Shown here one piece after another: positions 3,001 to 9,000 of a stretch of DNA of 31,028 bases; positions within the stretch are counted from its first letter, which is position 1; each line of letters opens with the position of its first letter. Position numbers: made by a program. The DNA comes from Campylobacterota bacterium (GTDB lineage Bacteria > Campylobacterota > Campylobacteria > Campylobacterales > Sulfurimonadaceae), in assembly GCA_034717975.1 (NCBI GenBank), contig JAYEMF010000139.1, positions 1 to 31,028 of the forward strand, read 5' to 3'.

Positions 3001-6000
3001 GGCTTTGTGGTTGTACGTGTAGATAATGACCTGCTCTGAGCGGCCGCAGGCTTTCCTGATGCGCTTTTCATCCGGCTGGCCAAGGTCGATCCAGAGTTCT
3101 ATCTCGCCGCCGAAATTTTTCTTCCACAGCTCCGGTTCATCTTCCTGGCTGAGTCCTTTGGTAAAACTCAGTGACTCATCGGCATGAAGCGCAAAGGCGA
3201 TAAGACGGACCATCATACGCAGGTTGTTTTCAGAGGGGTGCTGCGCGATAGTGAGATCAAAGTCGTTATAGTAGTGACGATCCATGTCGGCAACCGAGAG
3301 GGATACTTTGTAAATCGTAGCGCCTAGTGCCATCTTTTCTCCTTGCCTGTATAATCTGTGGAAGAAGATGAAACATTAACCATCTCATTCAACTCTGCCA
3401 ATCGCTGCGGGGTGCCGATATCCCGCCACTCACCCTCATACAGCTCACCGCTGATCTGATTTTGATCAATTGCTTTACGCAATAACGGCGCCAAGGGCTG
3501 TTTTCCGTAGTTCAAGTCCTGAAACAGTTTCGGGCTGTAGTAGCCGATACCGGAAAATGTCTGTTTGACGTCACCTTTGCCGGAGAGTCGATTCGACTCG
3601 AGCACGAAATCCCCTTTGAGATTATGTTCGGGATTTTCCACCAAAACCAGATGGGCAAGATCGTCTTCCAGATCAAATAAAGGATTAAATCCATAATCAG
3701 ACCAGACATCACCATTGACAACTAGAAACGGTTCATCACCCAGCAAGGGAAGCGCTTTGATAATGCCGCCTGCACTCTCCAATGCCCCCTTTTCCTGCTC
3801 ATCGGAGTAGGTGATGTTGACACCCCATTGGGAACCGTCGCCCAATGTTTCGGGAATCATAAAGCCTAAATGGGCGATATTTATAATGATCTCTTTAAAA
3901 CCGGAAGCAGCCAGCTTTTCGATCTGCCAGACAATCAGCGGCTTGCCATCTACTTCAAGCAGCGGTTTTGGAAGATGGTCTGTCAGCGGGCGCATCCGTT
4001 CACCACGGCCAGCTGCGAGGATCATCGCTTTCATGGGAGCTTTATACCTTTAAGCAGCGCTGTCAGTTCACGCGTCTCTTCGTAACGTTCGCCTGCCTCT
4101 AGAACATATTTCAGTGTTAGAGGAAGATCGTTAAGATAGCCATCTTTTCCATCACGCAGATAAAGTCTTGCAAAGACACCAAGGACTTTAATGTGTCGCT
4201 GCAATCCCATAAAATCGAACCACCTCAGAAAAGTTGCATCATCGACATCCAATCTCTTTAGATTGCGAAACTGTAACGCCAGTTTTTCGATCTCCGAGCG
4301 TTCATGGGTAATGTAGCAGTCTTTTAGCAGAGAAACCAGATCATAGGTCAATGCCCCGCTCATCGCATCCTGATAGTCAATGACACCCAGCTGATCAGCT
4401 GGAGTGAGCAGCATATTGCGAGAGTGGTAATCACGGTGGACAAAGAGATTTTGCGGCTGGGAAAGAACGACATCGGCGATACTGTCGAGTGTCTCGTCTA
4501 TGAGCTTTTTTTGTTCATCACTTAGTGACAGTTTCAGATATTTCTCTAAAAACCACTCCTGCATCAGCTCCATTTCGAAACGTAAAAAAGCTTTGTCATA
4601 TATCGGCAATCCTCTGGCATCACTCGCTTGCATGTTGACAATCGTTTTAATCGCTTTGATATAGAGATCTTTGTAGTTACTCTCATCGAGAATATCAAGA
4701 TAGTGGACGCTCCCAAAATCCTCGATGATCAAAAAGCCGTCATCCAGGTTTTGCTCGATGATATTGGGTGCATTGACTCCAGAGGCGAGAAGACGCCCGG
4801 TCACATCAAGAAAAGGAGTTAGGGACTCCTTTTCCAACGATGAGTCCATCAAAATATAGTTTTTGTCGCTATGTTGAAGCCTGAAGTAACGACGAAAACT
4901 GGCATCTTCAGAAGCAATTTCAACATTATAATCCCGCCAGCCGATGGCTTCCAGCCACGCTTTGATCTTATGCATAAATGCCACCCAGTATGCCATTGGT
5001 ATCTGCACCTGTAACGGTTTTAAGTTCGACACTCTCTTTATGCAGCCGTTTATAGGCCAGCCAGGCGAAGGCCATCGCTTCTATATTGTCACTGCTGACA
5101 CCATAGGCATCAGTGGAAGCCACTTCAACCGAAGGTAAACATCGCTGCAGACGCTCCATCAAAAAGCTGTTTCTCACCCCTCCGCCACACACTAACAATA
5201 ACTCAGGTTCAAACTTCATCACCTCATCAGCAATCGATCGGACAGTCAACTCGCTTATCGTCGCTTGAATGTCCTGCGGATCAAGATGGCTAAATGGCTG
5301 TAGCTTGGATTCGAGCCACCCACTGTTAAAATACTCCCTGCCTGTACTTTTTGGCGCAGATTTTTTAAAATAGAGGTCATCAAGCAGTCTCTCTAAAAGT
5401 GATCTGTCGATCGTTCCACTGGCGGCCCATTGACCATCCTTATCATAGGGAAGACTCTTATGCTTATTGACCCATCCGTCGATCAGTACATTCCCCGGAC
5501 CGGTATCGTAGCCTGTCAACTGATCACCAATAAGTGTAATATTGGCCATACCGCCGATATTGACAATGGCACACCGCTGCGCAAGATTATGAAATAAAAA
5601 ATGGTGAAACGCCGGAGCAAAAGGTGCGCCCTGCCCGCCCAGTGCCATATCTTTACGCCTGAAATCCGCTACGACTTTAATCCCTGTCCTGGTGGTGACA
5701 ATATTTGGGTCACCCAGCTGCATGGTAAAAGGCATTTTACTGTCGGGCGCATGCCAGAGCGTCTGGCCATGCAGGCCGATCGCCTCGATACGTTCGGTAT
5801 CAAGGTCATACTTTGCTATCAGTGCCAAAACAGCATCAGCAAAAAGATGTCCGAGACGATGATCGATCTCACCCATTTTCGAGAGGCTTGCAGTGCCGCC
5901 AATAACTGCTAGGATCTCCTCTTTCAAGCTGTTTTCAAACGGATACTCCAGTGAGGCAGCCAGTTCAATACCATCTGCTCCGACAGGGCAGATCACCACA

Positions 6001-9000
6001 TCCACCCCATCCATACTCGTACCGGACATTACCCCGATATAACACTTTTTCATGTTAGTTTCCACATACGGCAAATATTTGCAGAGGCCATCTACTACGC
6101 ATTTTTTTCCCTTTCCGATTTCCCCATACTTCCGCTACTTGATTGCACGATCATAAACGATACCATAGTCCCGATAACAAGCTGCCATGAAAACCCAAGT
6201 TTAAAATCAGTGACGTAACTTAAGATGTAAGGCTGTAGCAGCAACACCGTCATAAATCCGCCGATCAACCCAAACAGCACACTTTTTTGCGATCCACGTT
6301 TGGTAAAGATCGCCGAAAAGTAGACCCCAAGCAACCCGGAGTAGGCAAAGGCCATCACCCCGAGGGCGAAACTAAGCAGCGGCAGGTCGGTATAGCGCTG
6401 CCAAAAGTAGCTGATCATCGCCATGATAGAGAGCAACGCAGCAAAAACAACTACCGCGATACGAGCCGCTTTGACATAATGCTGCTCAGCCATCTCTGAA
6501 CGCGCTGACTTCCACGGACGGTAAAAATCCTCAATGGCGACCGATGACATGGCCCCGAGCACCGAAGTGGTCGATGAGAGCGCCGCAGCAATGGCTCCGA
6601 CAGTAACCAAGCCGCGCAGACCTTCGGGCATCTCATTCAAGATATAGGTCATAAACACCGTTATCTTCTCACCCTGAAAGCTCTGTTCAATACCACCGGC
6701 GCCAAAAGATGAAATCTCCGGATGCTGGTAGTAAAGGTAGAGCAGCAGACCGATTGCCAAAAAGAGGATATTTACAGGAAGACTGAAAACAATGGCATAG
6801 ATCAGTGAACGTGCCCCCTCTTTCTCACTTTTACAGCTTAGGACCCGCTGTGTCATATCCTGATCTAACCCAAATACGGCGATATTAAGCAGCAGCCAGC
6901 CGCTTAGCAGTGCCCAGATACTGAATTCACCTGAAAATGAAAAATCAAGCACCACTAACTTCTCATTACTCTCCAACAGCGAGACCATATTCCCAAGATC
7001 AGCGTTCAAAGCAGTGTACAGGTAGATAAGGACGGCCACGGCAGCACCAAGATAGGTAACTGCCTGAATGACGTCACTGTAGATGATCGAACGCACTCCG
7101 CCGACGTAGGTATAGGCCAGTGCCCCCGATATAAGGACGATGATGGAGATGGCGACATGCGATGCGATAATATCGCTGAACAGGATCATCGAAATAGCCA
7201 GGGCACCGATATAGAGCCGTGCACCGCTGGCAAAGAGGCGGCCGATGAGAAACATCGCTCCTGCCTCTTTTTTTGCAGGCTCTCCGTAACGGATCTCAAG
7301 CAGTTCATAGACAGTGACGGCACGGATCGCGTAAAAACGGGGAATCAGCACTTTGGCAACAAAGATGGCAGCCAGAAATCCCGACAGGGAGAACCCAAGC
7401 AGCGTCAGATCGTTACGATAGGAGAACTCCGGCCCGCCCAGAAATGTCGCGGCCGACTGGGCCGTGGCCAGTACCGACACGGCGACAGCCAGCATCGGCA
7501 TCGTGTTTCCTCCGACGAAATAGTCGCGCGAGGAGTCAATACCCCGGCGGCTCAGCCAGATTGATGTCCCTATCAACAGCAGAAAATAGCCGATAAAAAC
7601 GGTCCAGTCCAGCAGAGAAAATGTCGAGTTCATCAGGCTTTTTTCCCATTATGGAAGTAGTGTTGGCGCAACGCATCGATGCGGGTGTTGGCCGCTTCAA
7701 TGGTTGAGAGCTTAATGGCATCCGATTGAACCTGCTTGTATATCACCTCAATAAGCTCATCAAGATCCTGATAAGCCAACTGATTGCCAAAGAGCAGCAT
7801 ATCTACCCCCGTATTGATCGCTAATGTCACTGTCTCTTCAAGCGGGTAATGTTCCGAGATCGCTTTCATCTGCAGGTCGTCACTGACGACAACACCCTCA
7901 AACCCAAGTTTCTTGCGTAAAAGACCGGTGTTAACGGCATAGGAGAGGGTTGCGGGGTACTGCGGATCGAGCCGGCGGTTAAACACGTGTGCGGTCATGA
8001 TCATATCGGCTTGCCTGTTATCAATCATGATCTTGTAAGCTTGCAATTCCGTCTCACTCCAGCTCTCACTCACATCGACAAAGCCTTCATGCGAATCATC
8101 CTGCGAGGAACCATGCCCCGGGAAATGCTTCAACACACTGATAATGCCTTGACGCTTCAAAGCATCACGGAAGGTACCTGCAAATCTCGCGACATGCTCA
8201 GGGTCTTTTCCATAGGAGCGTTCAAGCTTGACGATGACCTTGTTGGCCTCATTGATACGAAGATCGACTACCGGGGCAAAATCGCAGTTGATGCCATGCT
8301 CGTTCAGCATGCCTGCCAGATCGTCATAACTCGCTTTCGCATGCATCACATCACTCCCCGCACCGATGCTGGCGGCACTCGGTGTCTCTAAAAAACCGTA
8401 CTCCGGATTCAGTCGGGCCACCCGGCCACCCTCCTGATCGACGGCGATGATCAATGGCCGGGATGCGATCTGCTGCAGCTGTGTTGTCAATCGTTTGAGC
8501 TGTTGTGGATTTCGGATATTTTTAACACGGTCACGTTTATGATAGAAGCGGTCGAAAAGAATGACACCGCCAAGCGGATGCTCTTTTAGTTGACGGTAGA
8601 TCTTGCTTTGCGGTGTTACCGACTCATCATCAAAACCAACGATCAACATACCCGCAATCAGGCTCTTGATCTGCTTTTCTGACGAGGAAGTATGCAATGT
8701 TCTAGCGTGCGAACTCGATCGCACGGCTCTCTCTGATGACATTGACTTTGATCTCACCGGGGTACTGTACCCGCTGTTCGATCTCTTCGGCGATCTCTTT
8801 AGCCAGTAGGACCGATTCATCATCCGTTACCAGAGCAGCATTGACCATAACACGTACCTCACGGCCTGCATTGATCGCATAGACCTGTTTGACACCCGGT
8901 TTTTCCGAAGCGATCTCTTCGATCTCCGTCACCCGCTTTAAAAAACTCTCAAGAACCTCTCGACGCGCACCCGGACGCGCAGCCGACAGTGCATCTGCCG

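Follow-up and report, generated by a model that had tools for sequence, protein, structure and literature searches.

How wall sugars are taken back by Gram-negative bacteria that have neither AmpG nor a PTS is a gap in the understanding of peptidoglycan recycling, and it has been stated as such for Rhodothermus, in which AnmK is present and AmpG and MurP are absent (PMC6987092). The same question is raised by a contig of the Sulfurimonadaceae (JAYEMF010000139.1, assembly GCA_034717975.1; the 31,028 nucleotides analysed here are called the window), where a sodium:solute symporter (SSS) gene lies inside an operon for recycling N-acetylmuramic acid (MurNAc). In this genome, 99.9% complete, neither TIGR00901 nor phmmer with an AmpG query detected an AmpG, which bears out what an earlier note on this DNA had said of it. 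That note had checked five genomes; none of 301 genomes of the order has AmpG above cut-off, so the absence extends much further and, being common to carriers and non-carriers of the symporter, does not single out the carriers. Sub-cut-off AmpG-like matches occur in 12/301 genomes, none a carrier, and are not accepted as AmpG, given their scores and, for the two that were scanned, a similar score against the RhtX/FptX model.

An intact operon for MurNAc recycling

The operon reads nagZ–SSS–anmK–amgK–murU on the minus strand, and all five ORFs are uninterrupted and closely coupled: nagZ and the symporter gene overlap by 1 nt (TGATG), a 41-nt gap separates the latter from anmK, and the anmK/amgK and amgK/murU overlaps are 8 and 4 nt. 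The five-gene operon described earlier is thus real and lies where it had been placed. The genes in this part of the window are as follows.

1499..3333, minus strand: yaeQ and a DEAD-box helicase, with 10-nt overlaps with murU and with each other
3324..4034, minus strand: murU, MurNAc-1-phosphate uridylyltransferase (NF045761, 309 bits, cut-off 250; PDB 4Y7T, E 4e-66)
4031..4975, minus strand: amgK-like anomeric MurNAc/GlcNAc kinase (NF045759 is the best family, E 1e-73, yet at 248 bits against a cut-off of 550); start at ATG 4975 or GTG 4984
4968..6053, minus strand: anmK (NF007139, 483 bits, cut-off 367; PF03702, E 2e-141)
6095..7633, minus strand: sodium:solute symporter, 512 aa, LeuT fold (PF00474)
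7633..8697, minus strand: nagZ, single-domain GH3 beta-N-acetylglucosaminidase without signal peptide, probably cytoplasmic (PF00933, E 5e-64; NF003740, 192 bits, under the cut-off of 207); start at TTG 8697, 4 nt past the rny stop, or ATG 8742, within rny
8702..10363, minus strand: rny, RNase Y (TIGR03319, 594 bits), a housekeeping gene outside the pathway

AnmK and MurU, the marks of Pseudomonas-type anabolic recycling, both exceed their curated cut-offs, and the amgK-like gene always adjoins anmK or murU in relatives. In this lineage the cluster is placed behind rny, with an identical junction in a second locus (L001). The yaeQ and helicase genes are possibly co-transcribed with the operon; they are not conserved neighbours, being missing downstream of murU in the compared loci. 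A promoter scan gave 21 promoter-like sites against 11.5 expected and a terminator scan gave chance level, with none assignable to the operon in either case. The genes have a GC content of 44-51% (genome 45%), and composition gives no sign of a foreign origin of the cluster.

Further parts of the pathway lie elsewhere in the genome. An MltB-like lytic transglycosylase and an Amidase_2 protein, the latter the sole copy, both carry a signal peptide, as judged by hydrophobicity and by eye, and are encoded inside the cluster in relatives. Genome searches gave no match to Mpl over cut-off, and tblastn with two MurQ queries returned nothing at E 1e-4; three GE[IFLV]GH motif matches considered as ROK kinases proved not to be such. 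The best match to the MupP profile reaches 86.5 of 359 bits here and 0/41 genomes exceed the cut-off, which is uninformative since 0/14 controls pass it as well, including Caulobacter with its listed MupP; no MupP orthologue was identified in the genome. A Cof-type HAD gene, on the opposite strand, is present in 28/28 AnmK genomes (within 20 kb of anmK in 16/28) and in 93/301 genomes overall, a weak lead that makes its product a tentative, rather doubtful candidate for a MurNAc-6P phosphatase substituting for MupP.

Distribution and joint loss of the symporter and AnmK

The symporter is found in 27 of the 301 genomes and AnmK in 28, namely the same 27 and G246, where anmK stands without the symporter, 678 bases from a contig end. 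AmgK is present in these 28 genomes and in G184. The G184 locus no longer contains symporter, anmK or murU, so that nagZ-amidase directly adjoins amgK, and neither the symporter nor AnmK was found genome-wide; judging from this arrangement, G184 lost the two genes together. The module is restricted to two of 26 sampled families, so that the scope given earlier, free-living Campylobacterales, holds for these two and not for the order. In the family of this genome, 58/131 genomes carry the symporter family, which also occurs in alpha- and gammaproteobacteria; only 3/250 scored gammaproteobacterial genomes match at E 1e-45, two of them closely, and the family is therefore rare there.

The relatives from other classes adjoin murQ, namZ, a sugar kinase or anmK, and sphingomonad plasmids show the arrangements anmK-TBDR-SSS-murQ and TBDR-SSS-murQ. 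Among metagenome loci below 55% identity, 37/41 have a MurNAc-related neighbour (BadF-type kinase in 34, murQ in 27, namZ in 24, nagZ in 14). Two SSS-NamZ fusion proteins (1 and 2 members) belong to a more distant clade, outside the 67-tip clade of this symporter, and support the wider group only. Co-occurrence, joint loss with anmK and context in other classes uphold the Pseudomonas-type AnmK/AmgK/MurU shortcut that had been proposed. The same co-occurrence and joint loss, with the neighbours of relatives, make a muramic-acid substrate likely, and on this gene-context evidence the symporter very probably carries a peptide-free muramic-acid sugar.

A SiaT-like symporter with an altered pocket

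The PF00474 match (95.6 bits, cut-off 22.8, E 4e-27) and the LeuT fold of an AlphaFold2 model (pLDDT 93.8) place the protein in the SSS family (TC 2.A.21). Its best solved relative is SiaT, the Na+/sialic acid symporter of Proteus mirabilis (5NV9; E 3e-37, 25% identity), which is also the top Foldseek match of the model (TM 0.80, E 4e-21); two distant SSS paralogues are encoded elsewhere in the genome. Aligned to SiaT (PMC5931594), it keeps the Na2 residues A56, A350, S353 and S354 and the Na3 residues D187, T356, S357 and T57, Na3 being the site for 2:1 coupling, as well as N247 and the inner gate R260. Of the Neu5Ac ligands T58, S60, T63, Q82 and R135, only the carboxylate ligands S60 and T63 are retained; unlike SiaT, it also lacks F78 and Q250. 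R135 is replaced by A in 193/193 relatives, while R132 and R139 are invariant (193/193 and 46/46). Sialic acid transport was rejected, given the missing ligands; there are no nan genes nearby, and sialic-type sequences fall in a separate clade.

This symporter has a lineage-specific pocket (A58, L78, S82, V253). In its clade of six, 5/216 conserved positions are altered, 3/9 in the pocket and 2/207 elsewhere (Fisher p 5e-4), the pocket positions being taken from an alignment with SiaT at 25% identity; in 23 control clades, 3/60 changes fall in the pocket. The root-to-tip distance of the clade is not longer, and the new states at 58, 78, 253 and 356 are fixed in 6/6 members, position 82 being variable (S, F, T). 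Single changes recur outside the clade: F78L in G162 and G217, both with an exported NagZ, and F82 in five other relatives. A253V adds bulk, which counts against import of a disaccharide.

A NagZ without signal peptide

We take the hallmark of NagZ to be the motif KH(F/Y)PGHG-x4-D(S/T)H and an SDD nucleophile. Both are found in this protein, whose motifs DQEGGRVAR, KHFPGHG..DSH and VVSDD are intact. A hydrophobic N-terminal segment is absent from it in all three frames. By hydrophobicity score and inspection by eye, 24/26 scored genome copies have a hydrophobic leader, the same-genus G552 and G553 among them, and the exceptions are this copy and a lipoprotein-like one; without the signal peptide of its relatives, this genome is therefore atypical for the family. 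Nine signal-less NagZ sequences form one clade (support 0.996; 59-87% identity), all with intact catalytic motifs. The signal-less NagZ and the altered pocket are found together on DNA in only two genomes, G000 and G577, with two further candidate pairs; as both traits arose once, their link counts as one event.

A proposed route and its alternatives

The observed genes and their families, their co-occurrence, the missing signal peptide and the pocket substitutions point to an AmpG-independent salvage of peptidoglycan sugar. The exported MltB-like transglycosylase and Amidase_2 would release peptide-free GlcNAc-anhMurNAc into the periplasm. There, in most carriers, this disaccharide would be cleaved by an exported NagZ, and the symporter would take in anhMurNAc with Na+. 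In this lineage NagZ appears to have lost its signal peptide and the pocket to have been remodelled, which fits a switch to import of the peptide-free disaccharide; the symporter would thus most likely import GlcNAc-anhMurNAc here and a NagZ of predicted cytoplasmic localisation would split it, a reading to which we assign a probability of about 0.55 from the sequences. AnmK would then yield MurNAc-6P, a putative phosphatase MurNAc, and AmgK and MurU UDP-MurNAc; AmgK with GlmU could also recover GlcNAc. Each transport step, and its coupling to Na+, is a prediction. We know of no SSS carrier of a disaccharide.

In a rather unlikely but credible alternative, the symporter imports a monosaccharide here too, anhMurNAc or MurNAc coming from the environment or from a non-classically exported NagZ, and the pocket changes only tune affinity: structurally solved SSS sugar carriers transport monosaccharides, exported NagZ, amidase and NamZ are the family-wide pattern, and S60, T63, R132, R139 and N250 are unaltered in this lineage. 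Against it, no exported exo-glucosaminidase was found, the leaderless NagZ being the only GH3 of a genome with no NamZ and no GH20 motif match; the signal-less NagZ clade, its motifs intact, would be left without substrate. Decay in this lineage is quite improbable. Under it the move behind rny cut the NagZ leader, leaving the upstream half functionless and the pocket under relaxed selection; the amidase, MltB-like and Cof HAD genes left on other contigs and the variable position 82 agree with this, whereas the open frames, the four fixed states, the normal branch lengths and the NagZ motifs kept in 9/9 sequences speak against it.

Another transporter, for example Opp-like ABC, might supply the cytoplasmic NagZ with muropeptides or disaccharide, leaving the symporter to transport some other sugar, perhaps GlcNAc. 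The genome does encode a PF00496 family-5 peptide-binding protein, a possible component of another importer, recycling through ABC systems is known (OppBCDF-MppA and YejBEF-YepA; PMC13209645), and NagK, NagA and PTS enzyme I were not found in the genome, so that GlcNAc uptake is otherwise unexplained. Nonetheless this is improbable: the PF00496 protein also occurs in the non-carrier G184, among housekeeping genes and with no family over cut-off, the symporter was lost with anmK though amgK was retained, the carboxylate ligands are kept and no Mpl passes the cut-off. The earlier note had left open whether (anhydro)MurNAc or a muropeptide sugar is imported; co-occurrence, joint loss, context and pocket residues support the muramic-acid sugar, and export of the amidase makes a peptide-bearing form unlikely. 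A full AmpG equivalent taking anhydro-muropeptides with their stem peptide would suit the absence of AmpG and a NagZ that is cytoplasmic as in Pseudomonas; it is highly improbable in view of the signal peptide on the only Amidase_2, the missing Mpl and an SSS pocket, of nine-carbon-sugar size, that would hardly fit a disaccharide-peptide.

Relation to known systems

The overall pathway is already known, and the one proposed here is a variant of it. The anabolic route of Pseudomonas and Caulobacter comprises AmpG, NagZ, AmpD, AnmK, MupP, AmgK and MurU (PMC5371407, PMC13046382); this lineage shares AnmK, the AmgK-like kinase, MurU, the lack of MurQ and a leaderless NagZ, and differs in having no AmpG, an exported amidase and an SSS symporter within the operon, with MupP and Mpl not identified. 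In Bacillus subtilis, whose operon is murQ-murR-murP-amiE-nagZ-namZ (PMC8054146), exported NagZ, amidase and NamZ trim outside the cell and the transporter belongs to the same operon, as in most relatives of our symporter; there the PTS permease MurP is paired with the catabolic MurQ, here a Na+ symporter with AnmK and the anabolic shortcut. Tannerella forsythia has MurT-MurK-MurQ and TfAmpG (PMC5790795, PMC7670621 and bioRxiv 2021.12.02.470905) and resembles this system in that it takes up MurNAc without a PTS and phosphorylates it with a separate kinase; TfAmpG, itself an AmpG homologue, brings in GlcNAc-(anh)MurNAc free of peptide, as is proposed for this symporter.

MurT, the cited precedent, probably belongs to the HGSNAT/NagX family and not to the SSS, on indirect evidence: NagF, which shares 35% identity with MurT (PMC13055268), contains an HGSNAT domain (PMC11887185), and a published primer from ~1 kb upstream of murK gives TPTDLVFPF, resembling TITDLIFPF and TLADIVFPI of two HGSNAT proteins. 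Against this, PMC5790795 puts MurT in the sodium symporter superfamily (introduction) and in the major facilitator superfamily (discussion). Our symporter lacks the DLVFP motif, and a PF07786 match is absent from the genome. If MurT is of the HGSNAT family, no SSS muramic-acid carrier has been characterised in the searchable papers; a search of that literature, subscription reviews aside, gave no paper that describes an SSS gene within an anmK cluster or treats recycling by members of these families. The reassignment of MurT and the signal-less NagZ with the pocket shift of the symporter are the new points. We consider it possible, at somewhat less than even odds, that this widespread, uncharacterised SSS subfamily adds a third class to the muramic-acid importers PTS MurP and MurT, acting in this lineage as a functional AmpG analogue through a few pocket substitutions that let it carry GlcNAc-anhMurNAc, with NagZ moved from periplasm to cytoplasm, both wall sugars recovered and the Cof-type HAD in place of MupP. 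A testable transporter family is named here for the uptake gap, and G552, with its exported NagZ and common pocket, forms with the present genome a natural pair for studying a change of substrate size in sugar symporters.

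An intact recycling operon around an SSS transporter

The earlier note had proposed a five-gene operon, nagZ-SSS-anmK-amgK-murU, on contig JAYEMF010000139.1 (3324..8742), and it is real and intact, with all genes present, open and coupled on the minus strand in a genome of 99.9% completeness. In profile searches MurU and AnmK passed their curated family cut-offs; for AmgK and NagZ the expected family scored best, yet under the curated cut-off. The middle gene (6095..7633) encodes an SSS protein of 512 residues, hereafter the symporter, whose AlphaFold2 model (pLDDT 93.8) has as its best structural match SiaT, the Na+/sialic acid symporter of Proteus mirabilis. 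The enzymes are those of a known anabolic route (described in PMC5371407 and PMC13046382), and what is new is the variant with an uncharacterised transporter family; a literature search listed no publication that treats this cluster, although one could lie in subscription reviews or in supplements, beyond the scope of that search.

Distribution of the symporter and of AmpG

Among 301 genomes of the order, which are kin so that counts are not independent, the symporter is present in 27: the genome under study, 12/24 of family f1 and 14/24 of family f6, with none in 24 other families. Named relatives belong to Sulfurimonadaceae and Sulfurovaceae, which we infer to be f1 and f6 taken together; a family-level sample gave 58/131 genomes. 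All 27 carriers fall within the 28 genomes with AnmK, and AmgK is found in 29. In the single AnmK genome lacking a symporter match (G246) the contig breaks off 678 bases away from anmK, and in the extra AmgK genome (G184, C4:131300-135100) nagZ-amidase runs directly into amgK, the MltB-like gene being kept and symporter, anmK and murU gone from the locus. GH3 occurs in 26/28 AnmK genomes versus 2/13 others. AmpG exceeded its cut-off in none of the 301 genomes, and sub-cut-off AmpG-like matches appeared in 12, none in f1 or f6. Carriers in this sample do lack AmpG, but its absence does not set them apart.

A NagZ without leader in a periplasm-first family

The gene upstream of the symporter in f1 and f6 is nagZ, namZ, a lone amidase or a fusion of nagZ with an amidase. 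Our leader test on NagZ N-termini, with a hydrophobicity score of 2.0 as threshold, was passed by 24/26 of the scored copies from genomes and by 100/119 of those from databases, and two further genome copies without the anchor motif appear exported by eye; the N-termini of these enzymes look like signal peptides. Such an exported arrangement, the same as that described in a Bacillus study (PMC8054146), would imply a monosaccharide as the symporter's substrate in the relatives.

The NagZ studied here starts immediately behind rny (RNase Y; 8702..10363) and lacks a hydrophobic leader whichever frame is read, whereas NagZ of the same-genus genomes G552 and G553 carries one. A 69-sequence NagZ tree places nine signal-less copies, including this one, in a single clade (support 0.996), and all nine keep the catalytic motifs; other low-scoring copies are scattered over the tree and appear to have been given too late a start. 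On DNA, the rny-nagZ junction occurs in this genome and in G577 (G577 and locus L001 are one stretch, counted once), and the N-terminus of database protein P0404 is apparently the rny-overlapping frame. The genome has no second GH3, and neither NamZ nor a GH20 motif match was found in it. Its amidase and MltB-like protein, encoded on two other contigs, retain leaders:

C118:1814-2464 (L216), an exported Amidase_2 that shares 61% identity with the amidase in the clusters of relatives; the next gene, of 377 codons, encodes a membrane protein
C149:6474-8935 (L215), a group of genes for an MltB-like transglycosylase, a Cof-type HAD and what by eye resembles an aldose epimerase

In relatives an MltB-like gene is often found 3' of murU with a Cof-type HAD near it, and the second stretch looks like the former site of the cluster.

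Changes in the symporter pocket

SiaT ligands were taken from PMC5931594, the register being fixed with the P. mirabilis protein, whose numbering agrees with that paper. The symporter keeps S60, T63, N250, both Na+ sites and the inner-gate arginine; R135 is replaced, and invariant R132 and R139 lie on the same helix. Compared with 193 other relatives (proteins and loci with some overlap, all sharing 55.5% identity or more), its six-member clade carries substitutions at 5 of 216 conserved positions: S/T58A, F78L, A253V, T284S and N356T. One is a Na3 ligand, and three belong to the nine pocket positions that are conserved (Fisher p 5e-4, for a pocket change that arose once in a clade where two of six members are 96% identical). 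Position 82, which missed the conservation criterion, is Y in 187/193 relatives and S, T or F in the clade. Overall, the clade has not evolved faster than the others (root-to-tip distance 1.82 vs 1.92 +/- 0.11), and in 23 control clades, some nested, the pocket was hit by 3/60 comparable changes. According to PMC5931594, F78 of SiaT is an outer-gate residue and T58A doubled SiaT uptake. The symporters of genus g52 have changed most; out of 367 residues, the anmK matches of this genus span only 2-257 (G224, L086) and 2-253 (G285, L084), and in G224 a stop interrupts amgK, making decay or sequence error possible.

Proposed route and alternatives

Judging from the leaders, lytic transglycosylase and amidase would generate peptide-free GlcNAc-anhMurNAc in the periplasm, and with NagZ cytoplasmic the disaccharide would be what crosses the membrane. 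As there is no AmpG and the symporter, its pocket changed, is the sole transporter of the operon, it is the candidate importer. Cytoplasmic NagZ would then release anhMurNAc for AnmK, and a phosphatase, AmgK and MurU would lead to UDP-MurNAc, a path set out in PMC5371407, which also has AmgK making GlcNAc-1P; GlmU being present, GlcNAc could be recovered too, a plausible gain. From these sequence patterns we give import of GlcNAc-anhMurNAc by the symporter, with cleavage by cytoplasmic NagZ, a probability of roughly 0.55.

That the symporter still imports a monosaccharide in this lineage, as the exported NagZ of its relatives would suggest, seems rather unlikely. Another importer, uptake of whole muropeptides, or decay jointly take up the remaining probability; the exported amidase speaks against muropeptides, and the open genes and kept NagZ motifs speak against decay. 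For the phosphatase step, no MupP orthologue was identified in the genome, with a MupP model that also fails on 14/14 controls. A Cof-type HAD is present in 28/28 AnmK genomes, at most 20 kb from anmK in 16/28, and also in 65 genomes without AnmK.

Muramic acid as a common theme in other classes

Symporter relatives at 46-54% identity adjoin MurNAc genes in other classes: nagZ, a kinase, murQ and namZ in Arsukibacterium, and anmK, a TonB receptor, murQ and nagA on sphingomonad plasmids. Among the best 80 of 559 confirmed metagenome loci, many of them short or near duplicates, 41 are less than 55% identical to the symporter and 37/41 have a MurNAc-type neighbour, as do 32/39 of the others (anmK in 25/39). 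Muramic acid is the theme common to these contexts, with a catabolic (MurQ) or anabolic (AmgK, MurU) exit. Arsukibacterium has both symporter and AmpG in one genome, and the symporter is therefore not simply an AmpG replacement everywhere. In genus g8 (L229-L243), namZ rather than nagZ lies upstream of the symporter in 11/15 loci shown, with the common pocket states. A more distant clade contains two fusions, SSS-NamZ (P0143) and SSS-(beta-lactamase-fold amidase)-NamZ (P0281, 1546 residues). Two MurNAc clusters of Novosphingobium have a PP2C-domain phosphatase gene (L062:2032-2889, L263:2019-2888) immediately preceding anmK; it possibly encodes the sugar-phosphate phosphatase of the pathway and has a homologue near 14849 of Croceicoccus locus L064.

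The nearest transport precedent is MurT, the MurNAc transporter of Tannerella forsythia, which PMC5790795 calls a sodium symporter in one place and an MFS protein in another; indirect evidence would instead place it in the HGSNAT/NagX family. In several loci a gene of that family, distinct from the symporter gene, adjoins it (sphingomonad and gammaproteobacterial clusters of L263 type and L063; 6/41 distant metagenome loci), and MurT-like proteins and the symporter may therefore have separate jobs. TfAmpG, which takes in peptide-free disaccharides according to PMC7670621, is a functional precedent but has another fold. To judge from a term search, a review on SSS proteins of prokaryotes from 2021 (PMC7918813) mentions neither muramic acid nor peptidoglycan.

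Other features of the window

The gene at 125-913 encodes an RNase H whose N-terminal part is a hybrid-binding domain of the Cauli_VI type. Positions 17319-30351 hold a block of AMP-ligase, acyltransferases, ketosynthase, oxidoreductase, reductase, aromatic amino acid lyase, glycosyltransferase and O-methyltransferase, which may resemble aryl-polyene or related lipid pigment clusters.
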